A DNA stretch of 13,222 nt from Gemmatimonadota bacterium. Its GTDB lineage: Bacteria; Gemmatimonadota; Gemmatimonadetes; Palauibacterales; KS3-K002. The DNA is taken from positions 1,613,706 to 1,626,927 of the forward strand of contig CP070823.1 of assembly GCA_020344375.1 (NCBI GenBank). Direction: 5' to 3'. The translations under genes and the position numbers were made by a program. Under the pieces are notes generated by a model that saw nothing but the letters and a program-made list of their open reading frames with translations, ran no database searches and was not told the DNA's origin. Numbering within the stretch: position 1 is the first letter of the stretch; the number at the start of each line of letters is the position of its first letter. Below are positions 672-12,420 of the stretch, piece by piece.

Positions 672-788
672 CGCGACCGACGTCGCCAACGCATCCCGCG
701 CAGCGTCGTGCCGGTCGAGTGCGGCCAAGCAACGTGGCCACGCGGAATGTAACCAATCCTACCAGACCAGCTCCTCACATAGAAAGGG

Positions 789-817
789 TTGACACACCCG
801 GCCGCCGATTGTACTAT
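789..817 (+). promoter_or_regulatory. Sigma70-type promoter: TTGACA (789-794), 17-bp spacer, TACTAT (812-817). Predicted TSS ~824-826.
   Basis: Read directly: 'ttgaca cacccggccgccgattg tactat'. -35 is a perfect consensus and -10 matches 5/6. It sits 51 bp upstream of the GntR start codon. Confidence 0.5.
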
Positions 818-821
818 TGCG

Positions 822-849
822 CTAGATGAATAGTTATCTAGAGTTCTAG
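822..849 (+). promoter_or_regulatory. Operator-like palindrome overlapping the predicted TSS: CTAGAT-gaatagtt-ATCTAG (822-841), then a third CTAG at 846-849. Candidate autoregulatory site for the downstream GntR/YtrA regulator.
   Basis: Perfect 6-bp inverted arms 'ctagat'/'atctag' separated by 8 bp. Three CTAG cores lie within 28 bp in an otherwise GC-rich region, immediately downstream of the -10. GntR-family operators are typically short AT-containing palindromes overlapping their own promoters. Confidence 0.4.
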
Positions 850-867
850 CGAAGGAGCCGTACAGCT

Positions 868-1242
868 TTGGTATTCTGGATCGACCATAAGAGCGGCGTC
901 CCTTTCTACCGGCAGATCATCGAGCAGGTCAAGTTCGCCATCGGCCGGGGTGATCTGAAGGCGGGGGACCGCCTACCGACGGTCCGGCAGCTTGCCGTGG
1001 ACCTTTCCATCAATCCCAACACGGTGATCCGCGCCTACCGGGAGCTGGAGATCGAGGGTGTGCTCGACACGCAGCAGGGGTCGGGGACGTTTGTGGGCGA
1101 GCGTCGTCCCGAGATCGACGCGCTGGAGCGGCAGCGGATGCTGGACCAGATCCTGACCGAACTGCTTGCCCGTGCCTCGGGGTACGGGTTCACCCTCGAT
1201 GAAGTGCTCAAGGGGTTGCGTCAGCGAAAGGAGGAGTCGTGA
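868..1242 (+). CDS. GntR-family transcriptional regulator, short YtrA-like subfamily: winged HTH plus a short C-terminal helical dimerisation region, 124 aa.
   Basis: N-terminus 'WIDHKSGVPFYRQIIEQVKFAIGRGDLKAGDRLPTVRQLAVDLSINPNTVIRAYRELEIEGVLDTQQGSGTFV' matches the GntR HTH signature (P-x-Y-x-QI, G-x-L-x-x-GD-x-LPS/T-x-R-x-LA, NPNTV-x-x-AY-x-EL-E-x-EG, G-x-GTFV) and aligns closely with B. subtilis YtrA. Start is TTG 868, since an in-frame TAG at 847-849 excludes a longer N-terminus. SD GAAGGAG at 851-857. The stop overlaps the next gene (ATGA). Confidence 0.85.
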   Translation: MVFWIDHKSGVPFYRQIIEQVKFAIGRGDLKAGDRLPTVRQLAVDLSINPNTVIRAYRELEIEGVLDTQQGSGTFVGERRPEIDALERQRMLDQILTELLARASGYGFTLDEVLKGLRQRKEES

Positions 1243-2381
1243 TGAACGGAGAGTCGAGAGCCGCCGGTGGCAGGCGGCACCATATATCACTCGAGAGATT
1301 CGCCACCACCATGCGGGCCGATTTCCGCTTCGCGCCGCTCAACGCACTGCTGCTGGTGGCGATCTTGGTGGCGGGGCTCGTGGCTCACCTGAACGTCCAT
1401 CCGTTCAGCGTGCTGGCCGTCGTCCTCGCGCTGGGCTCGGCTCTGGGCCTGGTCGCTATCCTGCGCGTGTTCCAGGTGTGGGAGGCCGTCGTCGTCTTCG
1501 GCACCGCCGACTGTCTGCTCGTCTTCCTCGAGCTGCGACCCGACAGCGAGATCCTGCTGGCGGCGATCATCGTGGGGCTGGTCGTCGCGCCGGCGATCCA
1601 GATCGCCTACCAGTGGGAGCGGGCCGTGCTGCTGCGGTTCGGGAAGTTCCGCGGGCTGCGGAAGTCGGGTCTGTTCGTGCTGGTGCCGGTGATCGATAAG
1701 GTGGCTCAGTTCGTCGACCAGCGGGTGCGGGTCACGGACTTCAGGGCGGAGACGACGCTCACCGCCGACACGGTCCCGGTCAACGTCGACGCCATCGCGT
1801 TCTGGATGGTCTGGGACGCGCAGAAGGCGGTGCTCGAGGTCGAGCGCTTCGATGAGGCGGTGATCCTGTCGGCGCAGACGGCGTTGCGGAACGCGATCGG
1901 GAAGGACGCCCTGGCGGTGCTGCTATCCGAGCGTGATCGCTTGGGTCAGGAGATCCAGAAGGTGCTGGACGAGAAGACGAGCGGCTGGGGGATCACGACC
2001 CAGGCGGTAGAGATCCGCGACATCATCATCCCCAAGGGGCTCGAGGACGCGATGTCGCGCCAGGCCCAGGCGGAACGTGAGCGCCAGAGCCGCATCATCC
2101 TCGGCACCGCCGAGACCGAGATCGCGGAGAAGTTCGCCCGCGCGTCCGAGCATTACCGCGATAACCCCGTCGCCCTCCACCTGCGGGCCATGAACATGGT
2201 GTTCGAGGGACTGCGGCAGAAGGGCTCGATGATCATCGTCCCGTCCACCGCGGTCGAGACCATGGGCCTGGGAGCGCTGGGCGGGTTGACCGCGTTCGGC
2301 CAACAAGCGTCGCCGGAGACGCCGCAGGACCGCGCCGGACCCGAGGCGAGCGGCACGGCCTCCGAGGATACGGCGCGCTGA
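1242..2381 (+). CDS. SPFH/band-7 (stomatin-like) membrane protein with an unusual ~130 aa polytopic N-terminal extension; 379 aa from ATG 1242. GTG 1239 is an alternative start one codon upstream.
   Basis: The core 'YQWERAVLLRFGKFRGLRKSGLFVLVPVIDKVAQFVDQRVRVTDF...' matches the stomatin/SPFH domain. The N-terminal region has three hydrophobic helices, and a coiled, charged Ala/Gln/Glu-rich tail follows. Strong SD AAGGAGG at 1228-1234 lies 7 nt before ATG 1242. It is translationally coupled to the GntR gene (TGA 1240-1242 overlaps the ATG). Confidence 0.85.
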   Translation: MNGESRAAGGRRHHISLERFATTMRADFRFAPLNALLLVAILVAGLVAHLNVHPFSVLAVVLALGSALGLVAILRVFQVWEAVVVFGTADCLLVFLELRPDSEILLAAIIVGLVVAPAIQIAYQWERAVLLRFGKFRGLRKSGLFVLVPVIDKVAQFVDQRVRVTDFRAETTLTADTVPVNVDAIAFWMVWDAQKAVLEVERFDEAVILSAQTALRNAIGKDALAVLLSERDRLGQEIQKVLDEKTSGWGITTQAVEIRDIIIPKGLEDAMSRQAQAERERQSRIILGTAETEIAEKFARASEHYRDNPVALHLRAMNMVFEGLRQKGSMIIVPSTAVETMGLGALGGLTAFGQQASPETPQDRAGPEASGTASEDTAR

Positions 2382-2434
2382 GCCGGCCGGCGGCGGCGGA
2401 TCACCCGCACCAGGCACCTGCGCTCGGGGGGATC

Positions 2435-2596
2435 ATGAAGGCGCTCATCCTGCCCGGTCTCATCCTCGTGCTGAGGGTCACCGTGGCCTTCGTGCTCAGG
2501 CCTCTGTTGCCCGGCTCTGTGAGGTCCGTCTTTGCGCTGGTCCGGGTGCTCCGCCTCGATATTGCGGGTGTTTCCCTGCTCGATCTTCTGATGTAG
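2435..2596 (+). CDS. Possible small hydrophobic peptide, 53 aa: MKALILPGLILVLRVTVAFVLRPLLPGSVRSVFALVRVLRLDIAGVSLLDLLM. Too short for the supplied ORF track.
   Basis: ATG at 2435 is preceded by the G-rich 'cggggggatc', and the frame stays open to TAG 2594-2596. One or two predicted TM helices. It lies in an otherwise ORF-poor 1 kb stretch. Hydrophobic ORFs can arise by chance in GC-rich DNA, hence low confidence. Confidence 0.2.
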   Translation: MKALILPGLILVLRVTVAFVLRPLLPGSVRSVFALVRVLRLDIAGVSLLDLLM

Positions 2597-2759
2597 TGGG
2601 CGATTGTGCCGTGCACCGCCGGGCCAGCCGGAACGAATAAAGAGGCCGCTGGTGGGTATTCCAGTGTAGAGAACACAGCAAGGTCAAGAACCCGCGGGGA
2701 TACCAGTGCGATCGGGCGAAAGCAGGCACGGAGTCGTTGACGTTCTCAGGTGGGGGCGC

Positions 2760-3020
2760 ATGGAGCAACTGGCCAGGGGGTATTTCATGCTAGGAGTGCG
2801 GAGGCTGTACTTGCCGCGTTGGGTTCCCTGGTGCGCCCAGTTGATCCTCCTCCCGCTCTGGCTGTGGCTGACCTACGGTGTCTTCCTTGGCGAGCGGGGC
2901 CGGGCGGACCTCGGGATCGGCAACTGGATCGTGGTGAGCCTCGTGCTCGCCGTGGTCTCGTTCTATCTGTTCTTGCTGGGTTACCGGAAACTGCCCGCAG
3001 GCCTCGACGAAGGGTGCTGA
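2760..3020 (+). CDS. Small membrane protein of unknown function, 86 aa with two predicted TM helices. The track ORF begins at ATG 2706; I prefer ATG 2760.
   Basis: Translation MEQLARGYFMLGVRRLYLPRWVPWCAQLILLPLWLWLTYGVFLGERGRADLGIGNWIVVSLVLAVVSFYLFLLGYRKLPAGLDEGC. Two long hydrophobic segments flank a charged loop. ATG 2760 is preceded by 'aggtggggg' at SD distance. No recognisable family. Confidence 0.4.
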   Translation: MEQLARGYFMLGVRRLYLPRWVPWCAQLILLPLWLWLTYGVFLGERGRADLGIGNWIVVSLVLAVVSFYLFLLGYRKLPAGLDEGC

Positions 3021-3307
3021 CTCGCCATAACAAGCTCCTGTGGAGCGGCGCCTCCCGCGACCTGCAGCACCCCGCCTGTGACCTTCCGGACATCATTGGC
3101 TGCATCGCCGTATGATCCCGCAGCTTGCGGGAACCGGCGAGGAACCTCTCGATAGCCCTTGAGGGAAGTGAAGATGTGGCCTACGTAGCAACGGCCTACG
3201 GCAAGCATGGTCGGCTGGGCACCAACGTCGGCTGCGGCGCTGTTCCGGACGGCTGAGCCTTGCGGGGCGCACGCCCAAGAGCTACATTGCGAACAACAAC
3301 AGAGATC

Positions 3308-3346
3308 CCGCCACTTTCGAGCTCCGGCTCGGTGGCGGTTTTTTGT
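3308..3346 (+). terminator. Rho-independent terminator on the + strand: compound hairpin ccgccac-ttt-cgagc-tccg-gctcg-gtggcgg, followed by TTTTTTGTT.
   Basis: Read directly: outer 7-bp stem ccgccac/gtggcgg (3308-3314 / 3332-3338), inner 5-bp stem cgagc/gctcg with a 4-nt loop, then a T6 run at 3339-3344. No A-run lies upstream, so it is unidirectional for +. It lies 288 nt after the nearest upstream stop (3020) and 82 nt before the KaiC-like gene. Confidence 0.55.
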
Positions 3347-3427
3347 TGGGTTGCCGTTGTCCGCTGACTTCCCCCCCTCGGCCCCCAACCGTCGGCGTCT
3401 ACTCGACGCTGATACGGGTTCGCCATC

Positions 3428-4897
3428 TTGTTACAGAATACAAGCTCTTTCGGCATCGGGGTTCTCGACGAACGTCTGAGCGGTCCCGTCTCCGGTGGCC
3501 TGCACGTGGTCATCGGCGGCCCGGGCACCGGTAAGACGGTCGTCGCGCTCCAGTTCCTGTACGAAGGCATCCGGCGGGGCGGGCGAGTGGCGATGCTGAC
3601 GCAGGCGCGGCCCGGAGACGTGGTCGACCTGGCGGCCTCCATCGGCATTGATATGACGCCCCACCTGCGCTCCGGTCGCTGGGTGCTGCTAGGCTATCAG
3701 TCGGGGTTCCGCGAGCGCTACCGCCGTAGCATCGAGCCCGGCGAGCTGTTCCAGGAGCTGGAGGAGTTCGTCACAGCCGAGGCCGTGCCCGATCGGCTCG
3801 TCATCGATACCTGCAGCCCGCTGGTGGAGTCCCGCGAGTCGGGGAACGGGGCGGAGCATCTGATTGACCTGCTGAGCGGCGTGAGCAGCACCGTGCTGCT
3901 CACCTTCGCGGCCGAGCACCCCGGCGCGCTGGACAGCGGCTTCGATCTTATCTCGCAGCGCGCGGCGCTCGTGCTCCATCTGATACTGAGCAGCGAGGGG
4001 CGCCGCGAGATCCTCGTGCGCAAGACCCCGGGGCCCGTTGAGTCGACGGGCCCCATCACCTTCGAGATCCGCGACGGGCTGGGGATCGTGCCGGCGCAGG
4101 CGATCCAGGGGAAGCGGCGCAGCGACCTGGCGCCGGAGGTGCGGCGCCGCGTGCTGTTCGTTGACGTGCCGGCCGATCTGCCGGCGGAGCTGCGCATCTG
4201 GCTGCAGGAGTCGTTCGAGCTGGTCTACACCGCCGATCCCGTGGATGCCTTCCCCGAGCTGGCACGTCGCGACTTCGGTCTGGTGGCCATCCACATCGAC
4301 CGGCGTAGCGTGGACCGCGGGCTGCACGTGATGTATCAGCTCCGCCGCGCCGCTAGCCGGCCGCCCATCCTGGTCATGTCGCCGGTCGATGTGCGGGCCA
4401 GTGACCGGGCCCGCGCGCTACGCGCCGGTGCGGACGACTTCATCTCCGGCGGCCTCGATCCAGAGGAGCTGGCGTCGCGCATCGAGGCGTTGCTGCGGCG
4501 CGGTCGCACCGATGTCGCCGATGGGGAGGAGACCCTTGAGGCGCCGAAGCCAGAGCGGCCCGAGGGACCCGACGAGCCGGCGGACGTGCATGAGATCATC
4601 CGCGCGCGACTCACGTCGCCGGGATCGCCGATCTTCTCGCTGATCTTGCTGCGGGCGGGCAACGGCAGCCGACTGGAGGAGCTGGCCGAGCACGTCGCCC
4701 GGCAGATGCGGCATGATGGTGGCGACCGCATGAACGTGAGAGAGGAACGCGTGGAGGTCTACTTGCACGGCGCGATGCACAAGCACGCCGAAAGCTTCCT
4801 CAAGCGCGTGCGCACGGATCGCTTCGCGCGGGTGGGCGCCGTGGTTTACACGTCACCCACCGACCGTGACGAGCTGCTCAAGATCATCGACCAGTAG
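3428..4897 (+). CDS. Three-domain regulatory protein, 489 aa. It has an N-terminal KaiC/RecA-like P-loop domain (~1-230) in which the catalytic Glu-Glu pair is substituted. A degenerate CheY-like receiver domain follows (~238-360). The C-terminal ~110 aa domain is unrecognised.
   Basis: 'SSFGIGVLDERLSGPVSGGLHVVIGGPGTGKTVVALQFLYEG' matches the KaiC/RadA N-terminal motif with Walker A GGPGTGKT. The Walker B-like 'RLVIDTCSPL' corresponds to KaiC 'LFILDASPD'. The segment 'VAMLTQARPGD' aligns with KaiC-CI 'VFVTFEETPQD', so E-E becomes Q-A. The receiver region is 'RRVLFVDVPADLP ... LVAIHIDRRS ... PILVMSPVD ... GADDFISGGLDPEEL'. It has the acidic pocket residue, the candidate phospho-Asp in 'IHID' and the Ser of beta4, but lacks the conserved Lys of beta5 (K to G). 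Start is TTG 3428, since an in-frame TGA at 3410-3412 blocks any upstream extension; there is no obvious SD. The stop is 1 nt before the next start. Confidence 0.85.
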   Translation: MLQNTSSFGIGVLDERLSGPVSGGLHVVIGGPGTGKTVVALQFLYEGIRRGGRVAMLTQARPGDVVDLAASIGIDMTPHLRSGRWVLLGYQSGFRERYRRSIEPGELFQELEEFVTAEAVPDRLVIDTCSPLVESRESGNGAEHLIDLLSGVSSTVLLTFAAEHPGALDSGFDLISQRAALVLHLILSSEGRREILVRKTPGPVESTGPITFEIRDGLGIVPAQAIQGKRRSDLAPEVRRRVLFVDVPADLPAELRIWLQESFELVYTADPVDAFPELARRDFGLVAIHIDRRSVDRGLHVMYQLRRAASRPPILVMSPVDVRASDRARALRAGADDFISGGLDPEELASRIEALLRRGRTDVADGEETLEAPKPERPEGPDEPADVHEIIRARLTSPGSPIFSLILLRAGNGSRLEELAEHVARQMRHDGGDRMNVREERVEVYLHGAMHKHAESFLKRVRTDRFARVGAVVYTSPTDRDELLKIIDQ

Positions 4898-4898
4898 C

Positions 4899-7064
4899 AT
4901 GGCTGAAGTACGCTGGCCCTACTGGGGACGTTTCACTGCGCTCGCCGCTGTCTCGCTGAGCCTGCTCCTCTTCTTCGTCTTCGGGTTTCTTCCCCAGCGA
5001 TTCCTGCTCGAGCTCGACTTCAGCGAGAGCGGGTTCGCCTATCCGGTCATCCGTTCGCCCCTGCCAACGCCGCCGATCCCACCGCCCGCGCCGGTGCAAC
5101 GGCCCGTGGCGCGCGGCCCGGCGGAACGCTTCTGGGCGGAGTACCTGCCGCTGGTTCAGGCCGGCGCTGATGAGGCGGCGCTGGGGCTCTTGCGCGCCTA
5201 CCTGGCTCGTCAACCGGAGGACATGGGGGCCCAGCTCGAGTACGGGCGTGCGCTCTGGCGGTTGGGTCGGCTAGATGCCGCGATCGGCGAGTATCGCCGC
5301 GCCCTCGCCCGCGCGGGGGACTCTGAGCTCAAGAGAGAGCTGGCGCGGCTCTACGTCACTGCCGGTCGCTGGGCTGAGGCCCTGGCCACCTACAAAGCCC
5401 TCGCGAGCGCGGCGCCGGATGATCTTGAGCTGCTGCGCGAGTACGCGCAGACGGCGACCTGGGGCGCGCGCTACGAACTGGCGGTTCAACTCTATGCGCG
5501 ACTCGTGGAACTCGACCCGGATGACGCGTCGCTGCGGCTCGAGTGGGCGCGCGTCCTCTACTGGTCGGATCAGCCAGAGCTCGCCGCGGAGGTCCTGGAT
5601 GGGTTGCCGGCCGGTCATGCCGGACCTGGTTTCGACTCGCTGCGGGCGGCGATCGTTGCGGCGCTGCCGCCACCGGATACGGCGACTCTGAGCCTGCTGG
5701 AGCGCGCCCGCGGCCTGGCGCTGGCGGGCGACGTAGCGTCGGCGCTGGCGATCTACCGGCTGCTAATGAGCGAGGGGCTGGCGGCCGACTCGCTGCTGTT
5801 GGAGATGGCGGACGTCTTCGAGTACCGGGCGAACGCGCCGGACAGCGCTCTGAGCTACCTGCGCGCCTACCTGGCTCGTCACCCGGACGGCAACGAGGTG
5901 CGGCTACGCATGGCCCAGCGGCTCGCCTGGTCCGGCCGGCTCGCTGAGGCGGAGGCGGACGCCGAGGCCATCCTGCGGGTGCAGCCGGAGAATGCCGAGG
6001 CCTGGGCGCTGCTGGGAGAACTGCGTCGCTGGCGTGGTGATCGTGCGGGCGCGGTGGAGGCCTATCAACGGTCGTTGGACCTCACCCCGGACGAGGCCAC
6101 GGCCGCTGAAGGCCTCGCCGCGCTCCGCGCGCAGGTGGATGCCGAGCTTTCGGCGCAGGGCAGCATCGGGCCGGCGAGCGGGTTCGAGTACTTCGCCGAC
6201 TCGGACGAGTTCAGTCTGGCACGCTGGCGCGCCGGCTGGACGGCGGGCGTGCCACGGACGCGGGGCGGCGTAGAGGTGGCGCTGGAGCGGCTTGAGGGCT
6301 TCGAGCTGACGGGTGAGCAGGATGGATTGACCGCCGCCGCCGCCCGGGCCGTAGGTGAGCGCTGGTGGCTGGAGGGCGGCCTGCACACGACGGCCACGCT
6401 GGGCGCCTGGGTTCCGGAGTCGGGCGCGCAAGCGCAGCCGATCATCGGGCTGGTGCTGGCGGCGCCGAGCTGGGGCGGCGCGTCCTATCGCTTCGAATAC
6501 CGGCGCGAGCCCGCCTACCGGGAGACGGCGACGCTGGAGGCGGCAGCGGCCGAGCTGCGCGTCGACGTGGCCGGGCTCGAGACCTATCGCCCGATCGCGG
6601 AGCGCTGGGACCTGTCGGCTCGCGCCCGCGTGGCCCGCTTCTCCGGCGTCGGCGACGCCAACCTGCGGGGCGACGCCGCGCTGGGCGTGTTCTTCCGTCC
6701 GGACGCGAGGTGGATTCTCGGGTTCGAGAGCCGTGGGCTGACTTTCGGCGATCCGGCGCCGCGCCCCGGGCGGCGACTCTACTGGGACCCGAACTGGTCG
6801 TGGGAGAACACGCTGCTCGTCGCCTGGCGCGGGGCGCCGGCCCCGGGCTGGGAGCTGGAGGCCCGAACGACTCCGGGCCTCGCCTGGCTGGACGAGCACG
6901 AACTCGACCCGACCGTTGTCTTCGTGTTCGGGGCGACCCTGGATGCCCGTTATCGGGTGGGCGTCTGGACGCTGCAGGGACGTGCCGGCTTCAGCCAGAG
7001 CCGGGCCGGCGGCTACCGGGTCTTCCGCCTGGAGCTGGGGCTGAGCCGCGGGTTCGGAGGCTAG
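4899..7064 (+). CDS. PgaA/BcsC-like exopolysaccharide export protein, 721 aa from ATG 4899. It has a signal/anchor helix, a Pro-rich linker, multiple TPR repeats (~80-420) and a C-terminal predicted beta-barrel porin domain (~430-721). The track ORF starts 33 nt earlier at GTG 4866.
   Basis: TPR-like repeats are 34-aa helical units, e.g. 'AQLEYGRALWRLGRLDAAIGEYRRALA', 'AEAWALLGELRRWRGDRAGAVEAYQRSLDLTPDE' and the recurring 'LRAYLARQPED/LRAYLARHPDG'. The C-terminal third shows alternating hydrophobic/polar dyads with aromatic girdle residues and an aromatic-rich end ('VFRLELGLSRGFGG'), typical of outer-membrane beta-barrels. ATG 4899 lies 1 nt after the upstream TAG, i.e. coupled. The N-terminus is hydrophobic (AAVSLSLLLFFVFGFL). 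Confidence 0.8.
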   Translation: MAEVRWPYWGRFTALAAVSLSLLLFFVFGFLPQRFLLELDFSESGFAYPVIRSPLPTPPIPPPAPVQRPVARGPAERFWAEYLPLVQAGADEAALGLLRAYLARQPEDMGAQLEYGRALWRLGRLDAAIGEYRRALARAGDSELKRELARLYVTAGRWAEALATYKALASAAPDDLELLREYAQTATWGARYELAVQLYARLVELDPDDASLRLEWARVLYWSDQPELAAEVLDGLPAGHAGPGFDSLRAAIVAALPPPDTATLSLLERARGLALAGDVASALAIYRLLMSEGLAADSLLLEMADVFEYRANAPDSALSYLRAYLARHPDGNEVRLRMAQRLAWSGRLAEAEADAEAILRVQPENAEAWALLGELRRWRGDRAGAVEAYQRSLDLTPDEATAAEGLAALRAQVDAELSAQGSIGPASGFEYFADSDEFSLARWRAGWTAGVPRTRGGVEVALERLEGFELTGEQDGLTAAAARAVGERWWLEGGLHTTATLGAWVPESGAQAQPIIGLVLAAPSWGGASYRFEYRREPAYRETATLEAAAAELRVDVAGLETYRPIAERWDLSARARVARFSGVGDANLRGDAALGVFFRPDARWILGFESRGLTFGDPAPRPGRRLYWDPNWSWENTLLVAWRGAPAPGWELEARTTPGLAWLDEHELDPTVVFVFGATLDARYRVGVWTLQGRAGFSQSRAGGYRVFRLELGLSRGFGG

Positions 7065-7067
7065 GCG

Positions 7068-8381
7068 ATGCGAAGTCGGCGTCCGTTCCTGCTCGTTATA
7101 GCCGCGGCGATCATCCTTGTTATCGGCCTCCTGCTCCTGGTCTGGGCCAGCCGGGCGCCGCTCGAGGTGCAGACGTTCATCGTGCGGCTCTCGATCGTCA
7201 CGCTGGTTCTGTTCCTGGTCATCCTCATCGCCCGCTACTTCACGCTGCTCTGGTTCGGCTACCTGCACCACCTCGAGTCGGGCGCTGAGGCGCCGCGGAA
7301 CGGGGTGGAGTATCCGCCGGTCTCGCTCCTCGTGCCGGCCTATAACGAGGGGAAGGTGATCGAGTCGGCGCTGAAGAGCCTGCTGAAGCTCGACTACCCG
7401 CACTACGAGATCATCGTGGTGGATGACGGCTCGACCGACGACACGCTGGCCAATGCCTCGCGCATGGCCGGCGGGTACGGGGGTTGCCGGGTGCGGGTGA
7501 CGACGAAGAGGAACGGCGGCAAGGCGACCGCGCTGAACGCGGGGCTAGCGATGGCTGAGTATCCCATCGTGCTCTGCATGGATGCCGACTCGCGGCTCGA
7601 ACCAGGTACGCTGAAGTCGGCGGTCGTGCACTTCCGCGATCCGTCGGTAGGCGCGGTGGCGGGCAACGTGAAGGTGGTGAACCGGCGGAACCTGTGGACG
7701 CGGCTGCAGGCACTCGAGTACGTCGAGGGCCTCAACATGGCGCGACGCGCGCAAGGGTTCCTCAACGCGGTGAACATCGTACCCGGGCCGATCGGGCTGT
7801 TCCGGCGCGAGGTGCTCCTGGCAGTGGGCGGCTACGAGCGCGACACCTTCGCCGAGGACGCCGACCTCACGCTCAAGATCCTCACGGCCGGCTGGAAGAT
7901 CCGCTACGAGCCGAAGGCGGTCGCTTGGACGGAAGCGCCGGAGCGGCTGGTGGATCTCATCCAGCAGCGCTATCGCTGGACGCGCGGGATCCTGCAGGCG
8001 CTAGGCAAGCACAAGCGCACGCTCGTCTTCCCACTGCCGGATCTACCGCTCTGGCTGTCGCTGGTGCAGATGGGGTTCGAGGCGGTCGTCTGGCCGGCGA
8101 TGAACGTTTACGGCCACCTGTTCTTCGCCTACGTGGCGATCGCCTTCGGATTGGGTGAGATGCTGCTGGCGTGGTGGGTGCTGCTCACGCTGCTCGACCT
8201 CGTGGCTGCGCTGGCGAGCGTCGGTATGGAGGAGGAGCAGCTGTCGCTGGTGCCCCATGCGCTGGTCTATCGTTTCTTCTTCATTCTGTTGATCGATGTC
8301 GTGAAACTCTGCTCCACGCTGGAGGAGGGCCTCAACCTGCGGATGGGCTGGGGGAAACTGGAGAGGGTGGGACGCATATGA
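7068..8381 (+). CDS. GT2-family processive beta-glycosyltransferase (polysaccharide synthase) of the PgaC/IcaA/NodC/HasA type, 437 aa. TM helices flank a cytoplasmic catalytic domain.
   Basis: Canonical synthase motifs are present: 'VSLLVPAYNE', 'IIVVDDGSTDDT' (DDG/DXD), 'CMDADS' (DAD), 'GNVKVVNR', 'FAEDADLT' (ED) and 'QQRYRWTRG' (QxxRW). Two N-terminal and several C-terminal hydrophobic helices. Length matches PgaC/IcaA (~410-440 aa). SD GGAGG lies 7 nt upstream, and the ATG is 3 nt after the TPR gene stop. Confidence 0.9.
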   Translation: MRSRRPFLLVIAAAIILVIGLLLLVWASRAPLEVQTFIVRLSIVTLVLFLVILIARYFTLLWFGYLHHLESGAEAPRNGVEYPPVSLLVPAYNEGKVIESALKSLLKLDYPHYEIIVVDDGSTDDTLANASRMAGGYGGCRVRVTTKRNGGKATALNAGLAMAEYPIVLCMDADSRLEPGTLKSAVVHFRDPSVGAVAGNVKVVNRRNLWTRLQALEYVEGLNMARRAQGFLNAVNIVPGPIGLFRREVLLAVGGYERDTFAEDADLTLKILTAGWKIRYEPKAVAWTEAPERLVDLIQQRYRWTRGILQALGKHKRTLVFPLPDLPLWLSLVQMGFEAVVWPAMNVYGHLFFAYVAIAFGLGEMLLAWWVLLTLLDLVAALASVGMEEEQLSLVPHALVYRFFFILLIDVVKLCSTLEEGLNLRMGWGKLERVGRI

Positions 8382-8671
8382 GCATCATCCAGATCATGGT
8401 GACGATCATCATCGTGACCATCCTGGTCACGGTGATCCTCGGTGTGGCTTCCTACGGCGCCTACTGGCTGCGTCGCGGTCGGCGCCCGGCGCCGCCCGTG
8501 GCGGTGGATACGAGGCCGCGCTTCTTCTACCGCTACGTCCCTGAGGATCAGGTTGCGGCCGAAGACACAGCAGCCGGGTCGGAGGTCGCGTCCGAGTCCG
8601 GCGAACCGGAGTCAGTGCCGGAGCTGGCGGCGAGTTCCGCCGATGCCGGGAATGGCCGGTCGCGTCGCTGA
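8378..8671 (+). CDS. Small single-pass membrane protein with an acidic disordered tail, 97 aa: MSIIQIMVTIIIVTILVTVILGVASYGAYWLRRGRRPAPPVAVDTRPRFFYRYVPEDQ.... Candidate accessory subunit of the synthase (PgaD/IcaD-like by position). The track lists it within a longer 8171-8671 ORF.
   Basis: ATG 8378 overlaps the synthase stop (ATGA at 8378-8381), the classic coupling seen for pgaC-pgaD and icaA-icaD. The N-terminus is an Ile/Val-rich TM helix, followed by a basic stretch and then an Asp/Glu/Ser-rich tail. Nothing upstream of 8378 in this frame is needed. Confidence 0.55.
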   Translation: MSIIQIMVTIIIVTILVTVILGVASYGAYWLRRGRRPAPPVAVDTRPRFFYRYVPEDQVAAEDTAAGSEVASESGEPESVPELAASSADAGNGRSRR

Positions 8672-10526
8672 GCCTCCAGGCCCGCGCACGCCCTGGACGT
8701 GGGCCGGCGCGATTCTGCTGCTGGGCACGCTGGTCGCCGGGCTGGTCGGCGCGGCGATCCTGCTCTGGCGTTTCATCGACGTCGATGCGCTGCTCGAAGC
8801 GAACGATGAGATGCCGCCGTCGGTCGAGGAGGTGGTCGCCGAGATCGTGCTGCCGGAGCTCCCTGCGACGGTCGCCTGGACGGCGTACCTGTACGAGTCC
8901 CCGCGCTCCGCTCGCTTCTTTCCCAATCAGGACTACTACTCGGCCTTGCTGGTTCGCTGGGGTTCGTTGCTCGAGGTTGTCGGCGCAACGGTTGAGCGCG
9001 TCTCCGGTGCAGCGGCCATCGATTCCCTCGGCCAGGGCGAGCTGCTGGTGATGCCCGCCGCGGTCTGCTTGGACGACGAGGAGCGAGATGCTCTGCTCCG
9101 CCACGCTGAGCGGGGCGGTCACATGCTGGCCACCTGGGCGCTGGGCGCACGCGACGAGGAGTGCGACTGGCTGGGGTACGAGTTCCTGAGGGACGTGGCC
9201 GGCGCCGAGACGGCCGGGACCCTGGAAGGACGACCTCCCACCTACCTTGTAGCTCCGCACGGCAGCGTGATCGCGGCCGGCCTCCCCCCTGGCTCACGTA
9301 TCGAGCTCAGAACCGAGCCGTGGATCACGCTGCGTGCGCACGCATCGAGCGTCTTCTGGTCCGACTGGGCGCTCAACCCTCGGCCGGCGCCCGAGGGCGG
9401 TGCGGGCGGCGCGGCCCTCGCCCATAGGCTCGATTCCGGTGGTCGCTTCACCTGGTTCGGCTACCGGGTCGATGTCGCTGCCAGCGAACCCGACCAGCGT
9501 CTTGTCGATCGCCTGGCCCAGAACGCGGCGCTCTGGGCGGCCGGCCACGTAGTGGCGGACGTGGATCCCTGGCCGGGTGGCTACGAAGCCGCGATGGCCG
9601 TGACCCTGGACGTGGAGCACAGCTTCAGGAACAGCCGGCGCCTGGCACGGCGCTTCGGTGCCATCCACGTCCCCGTCACCTTCTTCGTCGTGACCCAGCT
9701 CGCCCTTGAGCATCCCGAGCTCGCCCCTGCGCTCCGTGCTGTGGGCGAGATCGGCAGCCACAGCGTCGACCATCGCCAGATTGCCGGCCGGAGCTGGAAC
9801 ACCCAGCTGGCGGGTGCGAATCAGGCGCGAGCCGACATCGCGGCCTGGTCCGGCGATCTGCCCCTGGGATTGCGACCGCCGCGTGAGTTGTTCGACTCGC
9901 TGACGCTGGAGGCGTGGCGGCGGTCCGGCGGCACCTACCTGGCCGCGTCGAACGGCGCGCGCAGTGCCGCTCCGGACATCTTCGACGTTGAGTCGGGCGC
10001 GATTGTCGTGTTGCCGCGCGTCGTGGACGATGACTACACGGTGATAGTGACGCGCGGGCAGACCCGGCCGGATTCGTTGCGCGCCGCGTTCGCGAGCGGG
10101 CTCGAGAAGATGAGGTCGCTCGGTGGTCTCGACCTTGTCACCCTGCACACCCAGCTCGTCGATTCCGATCGCCGCCTGGACGCGTTGGAGTCGGTGGTCC
10201 GTCTGGCCCAGGAGGCCGGTGATGTTTGGATCGCTGGCGCGTCCGAGATCGCTGACTGGTGGATGCAGCGCGCCGGGCTCGAGCTAGGGGTACGGGAGCG
10301 CGCCGACCGCAGCGCGATCCTCTGGGTCCACAATTCCGGAACCGAGCCCGTGACCTCGGCCTGGCTTCGCATCTATCTGCCGGGGGAGCGCGCGACCTAC
10401 GCGGCCCCGGAAATCGGCGAGGTCATCCCCGAGTCCCACTACGGTCCCTGGGGCCTGCGGGTGAGGCTGCCGATAATCGAGCCGGGTGAGTCCCTCGGGA
10501 TCCTTCTGCCTCGGCGCGCCGGCTGA
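8643..10526 (+). CDS. Membrane-anchored two-domain protein, 627 aa from ATG 8643. It has an N-terminal TM helix, an unrecognised ~280 aa extracytoplasmic domain and a C-terminal CE4/NodB-type polysaccharide deacetylase domain of the 'DVE' motif-1 variant. It is the candidate PgaB/IcaB-equivalent. The track ORF starts at GTG 8442.
   Basis: CE4 motifs: motif 1 variant 'AVTLDVEHSF' (the T-[LV]-D-V-E-[DH] form seen in EPS-locus deacetylases, instead of TFDDG), motif 2 'GSHSVDH' (H-S-x-x-H) and motif 3 'LRPPRELF' (R-x-P-[YF]-like). The TM helix 'WAGAILLLGTLVAGLVGAAILLW' directly follows M-8643/M-8652. The first 200 nt of the track ORF overlap the upstream gene in another frame and are not needed. 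Stop is TGA 10524-10526. Confidence 0.8.
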   Translation: MPGMAGRVAEPPGPRTPWTWAGAILLLGTLVAGLVGAAILLWRFIDVDALLEANDEMPPSVEEVVAEIVLPELPATVAWTAYLYESPRSARFFPNQDYYSALLVRWGSLLEVVGATVERVSGAAAIDSLGQGELLVMPAAVCLDDEERDALLRHAERGGHMLATWALGARDEECDWLGYEFLRDVAGAETAGTLEGRPPTYLVAPHGSVIAAGLPPGSRIELRTEPWITLRAHASSVFWSDWALNPRPAPEGGAGGAALAHRLDSGGRFTWFGYRVDVAASEPDQRLVDRLAQNAALWAAGHVVADVDPWPGGYEAAMAVTLDVEHSFRNSRRLARRFGAIHVPVTFFVVTQLALEHPELAPALRAVGEIGSHSVDHRQIAGRSWNTQLAGANQARADIAAWSGDLPLGLRPPRELFDSLTLEAWRRSGGTYLAASNGARSAAPDIFDVESGAIVVLPRVVDDDYTVIVTRGQTRPDSLRAAFASGLEKMRSLGGLDLVTLHTQLVDSDRRLDALESVVRLAQEAGDVWIAGASEIADWWMQRAGLELGVRERADRSAILWVHNSGTEPVTSAWLRIYLPGERATYAAPEIGEVIPESHYGPWGLRVRLPIIEPGESLGILLPRRAG

Positions 10527-10693: not shown

Positions 10694-10963
10694 GTGAAAT
10701 TCGACGAAGACCCGAGAATAAGAGTTAGCCGGAAGATCCTCGCGCTTGCCTGGCTCTTCTTCAGCCTCTATCTGGCCGCCATCATGGGCCTGTCCTTCAA
10801 CGTGGGCACAGAACCTTACCTCTGGGGACTGCCACGCTGGGTGGCGATCGGCAACATCATCGTTCCTGTCGTCTTTGTACTCCTGCTGATCTTCGTCGCC
10901 GAGAGGTTCATACCCGACGTGCCCATGACAGAGGACACGGGGGACACAGAGGAAGAGCGATGA
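10694..10963 (+). CDS. Small 2-TM membrane protein, 89 aa, of the kind found upstream of SSS-family transporters (DUF485/YjcH-like or DUF997/YhdT-like). Probable transporter accessory subunit.
   Basis: GTG start, with strong SD AAAGGAGG at 10679-10686. Two hydrophobic helices (LALAWLFFSLYLAAIMGL; VAIGNIIVPVVFVLLLIFVA) and an acidic C-tail. The stop overlaps the start of the downstream symporter (ATGA at 10960-10963), the arrangement typical of yjcH-actP and yhdT-panF pairs. Confidence 0.7.
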   Translation: MKFDEDPRIRVSRKILALAWLFFSLYLAAIMGLSFNVGTEPYLWGLPRWVAIGNIIVPVVFVLLLIFVAERFIPDVPMTEDTGDTEEER

Positions 10964-12420
10964 ACTGGGCAATCGTCTCTTTTCTCGCTTATACAGGAAT
11001 ACTGATCGCTATCGGAGTCTGGTCCTACCGGATTGTCGAGAAGGTCCCGATCACCAAATACGAGAATGAATTCTACGCGGCGGGTAGAGGCCTGGGCGGC
11101 ATCGTGGTTGCGCTGATCATAGCTGGTGGGTTGGCCAGTGCGGGGACCTTCATCGCTGGACCGGGCATGACCTATGCCTACGGATATTCCTGGGTCCTGA
11201 TCAACAACTTCCAGATCTTCATGAACCTGCTGCTCCTGGCTCCGATCGGCATCATTGTCGGGATCGTGGCGCGCAGGGTGAATGCGGTCACCTACCTGGA
11301 CATCTTCAGGGCTCGCTACCAGAGCAGGGCGATCATCGTGATCCTGACGCTCTTCGTGACCGTGTTCTTGTTGCCTTACATGGCCACTCAGTTCGTGGGG
11401 GCCGCCAGAGTCATCGCTCGGATGACTGGGATGGGTTACCTGGCTTCCCTGGCTCTCGGCTCACTGGTGGTCCTGGTCTACTGTGTTCTGGGTGGCATGC
11501 GAGGTACATCGCTTGCGACTCTGATTCAGGGCATCGTGATCACGCTTGGATGCATCGTGCTGTTCGTCGGAACCGTCGTGTACGCCGGCGGATTCCAGCG
11601 GTCGACCGAGATCCTGGCTGCCCAGGACATCAACTTCCTCTCACCGAGCATGGGTGGTGCTTTCCCGCCCATGTTCGCCTTCTCGCTCGCCTGCCTGACA
11701 GGCTATTTCATCGTCGGCATGCCGCACGCGATGTTAGGGGCGCTGACCTACAAGAACACGAGAGCGCTCAAGCGAGGCATCTGGATGGGCGCGATTCTGG
11801 TGCTTCTCTGGACACTGCTCTTGTGCATGGCCGGGGTCATCGGACGCTCGCTGGTGCCTGACCTCGCTGTGCCGGATGAGATCGCTCCCTGGCTGGCCAT
11901 GCACGTGGTACCGGAGGCGCTGGGCGGCATCGTCTTGGCGGGCATCGTGGCCGGCATCCAGACCACAGTGGCGGCCATGGCGATCATCATCACCTCCAGC
12001 ATCGCCAGTAACCTCTTGAGAGAGCTCAAGCCGGATGTTTCGGCCGAAAGAGTAAAATTCGCCTCCAGGGTCACCATGGGAGCCTGCCTGGCCATAGCCA
12101 TAGGCTTCGCTCTGCTGCAGCCTAGGCTGATCCAGTGGATCATCTTCTTTTCGATAGGCGGACTGGTCACCGCCACCTTTGGGCCGATACTCCTGGGGCT
12201 GTTCTGGAAGCGTGGGAATCAGTGGGGCGCCATAGCCTCGATATGCTGGGGGATGGTCATCTACGGGCTGGGAAACACGGTTGTGCCCCAGATGAGTCTC
12301 TGGGGCACGCATCCCTCCTTCGTTGCCGTGATCAGCTCGGTGATCGTCTACGTTCTGGTCAGCTCGGCGACGCCTCCCCCATCAGAAGAGATAGCCCGGA
12401 CCTTTTGGGGAAAGCGGTGA
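10960..12420 (+). CDS. Sodium:solute symporter (SSS) family transporter, PutP/PanF/ActP-like, 486 aa with ~13 TM segments.
   Basis: Polytopic membrane protein with SSS hallmarks: an N-terminal 'FLAYTGILIAIGVWS' helix, then 'FYAAGRGLGGIVVALIIAGGLASAGTFIAGPGMTYAYGYSW' (the GR-x-LG / G-x-x-xG core of SSS TM1-2), and a Gly-rich TM set throughout. Translationally coupled to the small 2-TM gene upstream. Confidence 0.9.
   Translation: MNWAIVSFLAYTGILIAIGVWSYRIVEKVPITKYENEFYAAGRGLGGIVVALIIAGGLASAGTFIAGPGMTYAYGYSWVLINNFQIFMNLLLLAPIGIIVGIVARRVNAVTYLDIFRARYQSRAIIVILTLFVTVFLLPYMATQFVGAARVIARMTGMGYLASLALGSLVVLVYCVLGGMRGTSLATLIQGIVITLGCIVLFVGTVVYAGGFQRSTEILAAQDINFLSPSMGGAFPPMFAFSLACLTGYFIVGMPHAMLGALTYKNTRALKRGIWMGAILVLLWTLLLCMAGVIGRSLVPDLAVPDEIAPWLAMHVVPEALGGIVLAGIVAGIQTTVAAMAIIITSSIASNLLRELKPDVSAERVKFASRVTMGACLAIAIGFALLQPRLIQWIIFFSIGGLVTATFGPILLGLFWKRGNQWGAIASICWGMVIYGLGNTVVPQMSLWGTHPSFVAVISSVIVYVLVSSATPPPSEEIARTFWGKR

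Follow-up and report, generated by a model that had tools for sequence, protein, structure and literature searches.

The window analysed here is a 13,222-nucleotide stretch of contig CP070823.1 (assembly GCA_020344375.1) from a Gemmatimonadota bacterium, and the subject is a pair of overlapping genes on its forward strand that encode a short GntR-type regulator of the YtrA kind and a slipin, a stomatin-type SPFH protein. The GC content of the window is 66%. A cupin gene (309-671) is the upstream neighbour of the regulator gene, and the 196-bp intergenic region between the two has a lower GC content than the window. The regulator gene (868-1242, +) encodes 124 residues and begins with TTG at 868, the first possible start of the open reading frame (ORF) because an in-frame TAG is present at 847-849. 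The relatives start with TTG, GTG or ATG at the equivalent position. A ribosome-binding site, GAAGGAG (852-858, +), was read from the sequence 9 nt before the TTG. The slipin gene (1242-2381, +) encodes 379 residues and begins at the end of the regulator gene.

The regulator was assigned to the GntR family by its winged helix-turn-helix domain (PF00392, residues 14-76, E = 4.4e-17, 61.9 bits against a cut-off of 27), which is followed by 48 residues. The best NCBIfam matches were Rv1152 (NF053730, 72.7 bits against a cut-off of 170) and PmtR (NF047563, 64.8 bits against 200). Since these scores are far under the equivalog cut-offs, the protein is not an orthologue or equivalog of either. The regulator profile aligned over its full length with the short YtrA-type structures 3BY6, 4HAM, 4R1H, 3NEU, 6SBS and 2DU9/2EK5. 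A single-sequence model of the regulator (predicted local distance difference test, pLDDT, of 68) has two C-terminal helices, 85-105 and 110-123, and a Foldseek search with this model returned the same YtrA-type proteins as the top matches, with a TM-score of only about 0.4. The GntR domain, the length of 124 residues, the two-helix C-terminal part and a long palindrome with distal GT and AC, described below, are the features expected of the YtrA subfamily as far as sequence comparison can tell. An earlier note on this DNA, made from the letters of the sequence, had called the protein a YtrA-type GntR regulator and this assignment was borne out.

The second gene had been described as a band-7/SPFH protein, which was confirmed by a Band_7 domain (PF01145) at residues 124-290 (1611-2111, +) with E = 6e-31 and 108 bits against a cut-off of 23.6. 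The closest solved relatives are the stomatin of P. horikoshii (3e-39), human stomatin (about 6e-35) and QmcA (2e-26). The matches to HflK/HflC were much weaker (about 2e-7), and the HflK/HflC NCBIfam scores were far under their cut-offs. These comparisons place the slipin nearer to the stomatins than to HflK/C or to flotillin. NCBI lists a 100% identical protein, from a metagenome-assembled Gemmatimonadota genome, under the name 'slipin family protein', with its start annotated at Met24 and a length of 356 residues. The longer ORF, starting at 1239 or 1242, is the better call because residues upstream of Met24 (S16, E18 and F20) are conserved and because the relatives start at the overlap with the regulator gene. 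The gene model in the public record probably lacks the first 23 codons (1242-1310).

The region ahead of the SPFH domain, about 123 residues long, contains four hydrophobic segments in the hydropathy plot (1332-1610, +), at residues 31-49, 55-75, 79-98 (weaker) and 103-123. An AlphaFold model, built from a shallow alignment of sequences with identities of 74% or more and used for helix positions only, has helices at 31-52, 57-77, 80-98 and 103-133 with low confidence (pLDDT 44). The earlier note had counted three membrane helices in about 130 residues. The long hydrophobic N-terminus stands and the count does not. The fourth segment is the ordinary stomatin membrane anchor and is the only one that aligns with the anchor of solved stomatins; rather than the single anchor or hairpin of stomatins, four segments are found within 123 residues. 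The N-terminus is thus longer and more hydrophobic than that of textbook stomatins, in agreement with the unusual topology that had been suggested. Lysine and arginine residues are concentrated ahead of the first segment and behind the fourth. From this distribution and the hydropathy, a cytoplasmic location is predicted for the N-terminus and the SPFH domain alike. The slipins related to this protein have either a long form of about 380 residues with three or four detected segments, the form found in the window, or a short form of about 290-345 residues with two segments. The number of segments is likely even, which would keep both ends of the protein on one side of the membrane. The long forms have an invariant motif, SLERFATTxRADFRF, before the first membrane segment, in a part predicted to be cytoplasmic.

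The two genes meet in the sequence GTGATGA (1239-1245, +). The regulator stop codon (TGA, 1240-1242) overlaps a GTG start at 1239 by 4 nt or an ATG start at 1242 by 1 nt, and the slipin ORF accordingly runs from 1239 or 1242 to 2381. Translational coupling through an ATGA junction had been proposed. The literal ATGA, at 1242-1245, holds only a second in-frame stop, and the actual junction is GTGATGA. However, the coupling holds in substance because a 4-nt ATGA/GTGA overlap is the commonest junction among the readable pairs, 33 of 67 (66 related loci and the window).

Conservation of the regulator-slipin pair

Two sets of loci were collected. For the first, one genome per species was scanned with an alignment of the slipin and its relatives, giving 80 loci in ten phyla: Gemmatimonadota, Krumholzibacteriota, Latescibacterota, Myxococcota, Acidobacteriota, Planctomycetota, Desulfobacterota, Bacteroidota, Spirochaetota and Chloroflexota. 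A regulator homologue was found upstream by tblastn in 79 of the 80; the sequence of the remaining locus, L005, starts within the slipin gene. Of the 79 matches, three are partial, two cut by a contig edge (L020 and L074) and one limited to the C-terminal part (L017). With the exception of L019 and L022, nearly all of these loci have the regulator and slipin genes directly side by side or overlapping. For the second set, metagenome contigs were searched with the regulator, giving 80 loci with 48-82% identity. The slipin gene was found downstream in every one of the 67 loci that have at least 500 nt of downstream sequence, and directly downstream in all but one, L107.

The identities of the regulator and the slipin co-vary (r = 0.86), slipin identities of 61-80% span several phyla, and each locus holds a single regulator-slipin pair. 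Apart from the pair itself, no flanking gene common to more than 16 of the 80 loci was found by tblastx or by clustering of neighbouring ORFs. The earlier note had presented the pair as an unusual local coupling. The overlapping two-gene unit is confirmed, but it is a fixed module in about ten phyla and not a local oddity. The linkage seems characteristic of a single clade, since a Methylocystis slipin with 52% identity has no regulator annotated beside it in the PLSDB gene table, which is incomplete. In Parabacteroides distasonis the pair (WP_009275952/WP_009275953) is named 'GntR family transcriptional regulator' and 'slipin family protein' by RefSeq. Furthermore, in five Spirochaetota loci (L044, L045, L052, L063 and L073) the slipin gene is directly followed by genes for an ABC ATPase and two MacB/FtsX-type permeases, and this continuation into an ABC transporter indicates that the module is related to the classical YtrA-ABC operons and does not depart from them.

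Some loci have additional genes near the pair. In the two Planctomycetota exceptions, a membrane protein of 276-290 residues with two DUF3592 domains is encoded between the regulator and the slipin (L019, 3098-3970; L022, 3072-3902), and its gene has an ATGA/GTGA overlap with that of the regulator. In L107 (metagenome contig Ga0316217_10004939) the slipin gene lies 2.3 kb downstream of the regulator gene, with an apparent insertion between them. The largest cluster of neighbouring ORFs comes from 16 genome loci (for example L011, L020, L023, L028 and L032), lies within 2.5 kb and has an 'EELGWRGY' motif, which we take to resemble that of CPBP/CAAX-type intramembrane proteases; the cluster is possibly mixed and is too rare to belong to the module. 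A third operon member was also considered, including a 53-residue hydrophobic ORF (2435-2596) which is not conserved in the relatives, and was dropped, no neighbour being shared by more than 16 of the 80 loci.

Promoter and predicted operator

The best promoter-like site in the window lies in the intergenic region upstream of the regulator gene, with TTGACA at 789-794 (+), a 17-bp spacer and TACTAT at 812-817 (+). It is the top sigma-70-like match in the whole 13.2-kb window, 10 of 12 positions, and confirms the promoter that had been proposed. The transcription start, about 823-826, is a prediction from the -10 box. In the related upstream regions the sequence 'ttGTACTAT' is kept, and a TTGACA-like hexamer occurs at -21 from the start of the operator, described next, in 14 of the 67 sites that score at least 11/14 (the window counted).

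Comparison of the upstream regions of 77 genome loci gave a candidate family operator, the 20-bp palindrome TGTACTA-N6-TAGTACA, with half-sites 13 nt apart from start to start. The GT at positions 2-3 and the AC at positions 18-19 are part of the consensus. TGTACTA and TAGTACA occur at the 13-nt spacing in 61 of the 77 regions, and matches of at least 12/14 in 60. The same consensus was re-found in the independent metagenome set of 80 loci, where at least 12/14 positions match in 67 of 77 regions and at least 11/14 in 75. The scan reached about ±4 kb around each copy in the genome loci and ±2.5 kb in the metagenome loci. In the 654 kb of fetched genome loci, all 63 sites of at least 12/14 lie upstream of a regulator gene (61 within 130 nt of it, one 159 nt away and one ahead of a copy with a frameshift), and in the 292 kb of metagenome loci all 68 strong sites lie at most 160 nt upstream of the regulator start. 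In total, 131 strong sites were found over about 0.95 Mb, every one just upstream of the regulator gene. The operator is present in nearly all loci of the ten phyla; the sole Chloroflexota locus, L077, has no recognisable match.

In the window the core operator is TGTACTA-TTGCGC-TAGATGA (TGTACTATTGCGCTAGATGA; 810-829), which matches the consensus in 11 of 14 positions and is the only site of at least 10/14 in the 13.2 kb. The TACTAT -10 box falls within the left half of this site; the right half starts with the first CTAG of the region and covers the predicted transcription start. Among the related loci the operator always overlaps the core promoter, lying on the -10 box, between -35 and -10, or just after -10, and all three positions would suit occlusion of RNA polymerase. 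The predicted operator at 810-829 overlaps the -10 box and thus fits the autorepression that had been proposed, with a repressor site on the core promoter and the predicted start. The earlier note had put its palindrome right on the transcription start; a site on the core promoter is upheld, the position of the start being predicted from the -10 box only. Residues P37, T38, R40, N49, N51, T52 and Y57 are invariant in the DNA-reading region across the regulator family, which is consistent with one shared site.

The right half-site, CTAGATGA (822), is followed in register by three auxiliary 8-bp boxes, ATAGTTAT (830), CTAGAGTT (838) and CTAGCGAA (846), which together occupy 830-853. In a position-frequency matrix of 67 aligned sites the dinucleotide TA peaks at +13/14, +21/22, +29/30 and +37, and the downstream boxes appear as weaker (C/A)TAG direct repeats of the right half-site that recur every 8 bp and decay with distance. 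These boxes explain the cluster of CTAG sequences in the intergenic region. The closest relatives carry direct repeats of the CTAGAACA type at the same 8-bp phase, CTAGAACA CTAGAACT CTAGATCA in L001 and CTAGAACA CTAGTTAT CTAGTT CTAG in L002.

In Parabacteroides distasonis (NZ_OY725779.1, L082 2449-2478) the operator TGTGCTATACAAATAGTACA ends 2 nt before the regulator ATG, and the Bacteroidota transcript may for this reason have no leader, or its start may lie within the operator. The record that contains this locus, 375 kb long and labelled 'plasmid 34', includes serB and other housekeeping genes and may be a piece of a chromosome. A reading of the palindrome as an RNA hairpin was also considered and was rejected, the site lying in many loci between -35 and -10, where it would not be transcribed. 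An Rfam search of the window gave no match.

Proposed operon model and alternatives

The locus is probably an autorepressed, translationally coupled ytrA-slipin operon that forms a self-contained two-gene unit. The analysis shows the genes and their families, their overlap, the match to a promoter, and a gene pair and an operator that are both conserved and exclusive to each other's company. The mechanism that we infer, which takes in DNA binding, repression, the start site, the topology, cage formation and the inducing signal, would be as follows. Transcription would start from the sigma-70-type promoter (TTGACA, 17 bp, TACTAT), and its first product would be the short YtrA-type GntR repressor. 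A repressor dimer would bind the 20-bp palindrome at 810-829, with the -10 box in the left half and the start under the right half, and further copies would probably load on the three 8-bp-phased (C/A)TAG boxes at 830-853. Once bound, the repressor would keep RNA polymerase off the promoter. On relief of repression, a single mRNA would give repressor and slipin in a fixed ratio by way of the overlapping stop and start codons. The slipin, with its four N-terminal membrane segments, would then form an oligomeric cage around a patch of the inner membrane, as suggested by its homology to the solved stomatin and QmcA assemblies; the solved slipin homologues were deposited as 16- and 26-chain assemblies. 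By analogy with other YtrA regulators and other SPFH proteins, membrane or envelope stress would be the most likely inducing signal.

Several points weigh against this model. The window operator is weaker than most (11/14), with a right half of TAGATGA where TAGTACA or TAGAACA is found elsewhere, and repression may be partial here. The 8-bp phase of the auxiliary boxes does not match the helical repeat of DNA. The regulator may also have more distant targets beyond the ±4 or ±2.5 kb that were scanned. No terminator that would mark the 3' end of the operon was found after the slipin gene in the window. The structure prediction of the slipin is poor (pLDDT 44), its topology resting on hydropathy and charge distribution. 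Finally, no effector of a YtrA-type regulator was known as of a 2019 review, and the word 'inducible' is an assumption.

The possibility was considered that the same operon and operator work with no inducer at all, autoregulation and coupling serving to hold the slipin level constant and to buffer it against changes in copy number and growth rate, which would make the unit a homeostat and not a stress switch. The regulator has a C-terminal domain of only about 48 residues, and as of 2019 no physiological ligand had been identified for the YtrA type. The local regulon, apparently a single promoter, and the strict conservation of the stop/start overlap would also fit the control of a ratio. In B. 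subtilis, however, YtrA responds to cell-wall antibiotics, in S. aureus PmtR is released by the substrates of its transporter, and many bacterial SPFH genes are induced by envelope stress. Moreover, the multi-box operator suggests a cooperative, switch-like repression. A constant level of slipin without an inducer is, on balance, somewhat unlikely.

Alternatively, the slipin could itself be the sensor as well as the cargo, its N-terminal motif SLERFATTxRADFRF or the cage capturing and releasing the repressor according to the state of the membrane. The strict co-occurrence of regulator and slipin in both directions, the co-variation of their identities and the translational coupling favour such a feedback, as do the invariant, predicted cytoplasmic motif before the first membrane segment of the long-form slipins and the want of an obvious ligand pocket in the regulator. 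However, the co-occurrence is equally explained by plain cis-regulation, and the short-form slipins, which do not have the long N-terminal motif, keep the same regulator and operator. We consider this arrangement unlikely. If true, it would amount to a closed feedback loop from membrane to promoter conserved in about ten phyla, and would supply both the missing 'effector' of the YtrA-type regulators and the first defined regulatory role for a bacterial stomatin.

The earlier note had proposed a triple-CTAG operator, in which the repressor recognises the palindrome CTAGAT-N8-ATCTAG (822-841) and a third CTAG, TACTAT being a promoter element only. The sequence is exact: the CTAGs are located at 822, 838 and 846, with CTAGAT at 822-827 and ATCTAG at 836-841. 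The cluster is also non-random, since three CTAGs in 28 bp were obtained in none of 1000 local shuffles and in 4 of 300 shuffles of the whole window, and the window has only 15 CTAG sites where 23-41 would be expected. Furthermore, the match of the window to the family operator consensus is imperfect. However, a palindrome with 6-nt arms is expected by chance, since dinucleotide shuffling of the intergenic region gave at least as many such repeats in 167 of 1000 cases. CTAGAT-N8-ATCTAG shares bases with the right half-site and with two auxiliary boxes, and its symmetry is not conserved; the closest relatives, L001 and L002, show direct repeats there, and most other phyla do not have the CTAG triplet. 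The conserved element is instead TGTACTA-N6-TAGTACA, and an altered specificity in one genome is unlikely because the DNA-reading residues are invariant. CTAGAT-N8-ATCTAG was therefore rejected as the operator, and recognition of this palindrome is very unlikely. What survives of the proposal is the cluster itself: the triple CTAG is real and meaningful, and the palindrome that runs through it is incidental.

A mobile accessory or defence cassette, in which an abortive-infection or toxin-like membrane effector and its repressor spread horizontally, might be suspected from the unconserved flanking genes and from the slipin identities across phyla, but it is extremely unlikely, as neither protein has a PADLOC match, 2.9 million viral contigs contain only one weak relative of the regulator, the plasmid matches are large replicons or more distant slipins with none covering at least 80% of the slipin, no integrase or transposase is prominent in the neighbour clustering, and each locus has a single pair.

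Related systems, neighbouring genes and significance

The best-studied parallel to the proposed autorepressed ytrA-slipin operon is found in an archaeon. The YtrA of Sulfolobus acidocaldarius is encoded at the head of an operon that also contains a gene for a membrane protein, and it represses that operon through a palindrome over the start site; the palindrome is flanked by extra half-sites that repeat the adjacent half, and the regulon is very small (PMC6746942). The window shares with it a short YtrA-type GntR regulator, a membrane protein as the second gene, and a start-site palindrome with extra half-sites, and the regulator profile matches the Sulfolobus structure, 6SBS, with E = 1.8e-18 over residues 3-121. 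In contrast, the core motif is 14 bp in the archaeal system and 20 bp here, and the cargo is an uncharacterised membrane protein there and an SPFH protein in the window. Binding and repression have been demonstrated for Sulfolobus YtrA, whereas here they are predicted from the sequence.

The regulator belongs to the same subfamily as B. subtilis YtrA (ytrGABCDEF), S. aureus PmtR (pmtABCD) and M. tuberculosis Rv1152. As in those systems, it is encoded first in the unit that it is predicted to repress, and the predicted operator is a long palindrome in which GT and AC lie far from the centre. The Spirochaetota versions of the module, with an ABC ATPase and two FtsX/MacB permeases, resemble the classical YtrA-ABC operons further. 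However, the cargo here and in most loci is the slipin alone, and no ABC transporter match was found anywhere in the 13-kb window. A subgroup of actinomycete YtrA-like regulators is also encoded with a membrane protein and not with an ABC transporter (Tsypik et al. 2016, as cited in PMC6746942); the citing text does not name an SPFH protein as the partner. The ten phyla found here do not include Actinomycetota.

On the side of the slipin, the prokaryotic stomatin operon of P. horikoshii (PH1511 stomatin and the NfeD/STOPP protease PH1510) and E. coli QmcA share the stomatin-type SPFH domain, with E values for the slipin of 3e-39 against the P. horikoshii structure 3BK6 and 2e-26 against QmcA. 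In all of them the SPFH domain is followed by a C-terminal helical region, which builds the cage in the solved assemblies. The slipins described here differ in having more than one hydrophobic N-terminal segment, four in the long form and two in the short form, and in the dedicated transcription factor attached to them. No NfeD partner was found among the scanned ORFs of the window or as a conserved neighbour.

The rest of the window was also annotated. For about 1 kb past the slipin gene (2382-3427) there is no recognisable gene, Pfam match or Rfam match, and no terminator right after the stop codon. A weaker promoter-like site (3087-3116) lies ahead of a gene for a KaiC-like ATPase fused to a response-regulator receiver (3428-4897). 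On the same strand this gene is followed by those for a 732-residue TPR protein (4866-7064), a PgaC/IcaA-like family-2 glycosyltransferase (7068-8381) and a 694-residue protein with a polysaccharide deacetylase domain (8442-10526), and the run from 3428 to 10526 looks like a poly-N-acetylglucosamine (PNAG)-type exopolysaccharide cluster with an unusual KaiC-receiver regulator. Further downstream, a small DUF997 membrane protein gene (10694-10963) overlaps the start of a gene for a PanF-like sodium/solute symporter (10960-12420; 300 bits against a cut-off of 328).

Both genes of the pair are routinely annotated, and an autorepressor that occludes its own promoter is an ordinary mechanism. The new element is the stomatin as the cargo of a probable YtrA-type autoregulated operon. 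No description of a GntR/YtrA-slipin module or of its operator was found in the full-text literature, a search whose coverage excluded most subscription journals; two mentions in Bacteroidetes proved to be unrelated table rows. To our knowledge, the function and the timing of expression of bacterial slipins, like the signals of YtrA-type regulators, are largely unknown. The interest of the finding lies in the breadth and fidelity of the conservation and in making slipin function experimentally approachable. A large clade of slipins always travels with its own predicted repressor of the YtrA type, and the carriers include a gut commensal, the Bacteroidota species Parabacteroides distasonis. The Spirochaetota version, in which the slipin is joined by a MacB/FtsX transporter, links the pair to the YtrA-ABC envelope operons. 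The operator and the repressor together are a portable experimental handle, and the condition that opens the switch would reveal the role of the slipin.

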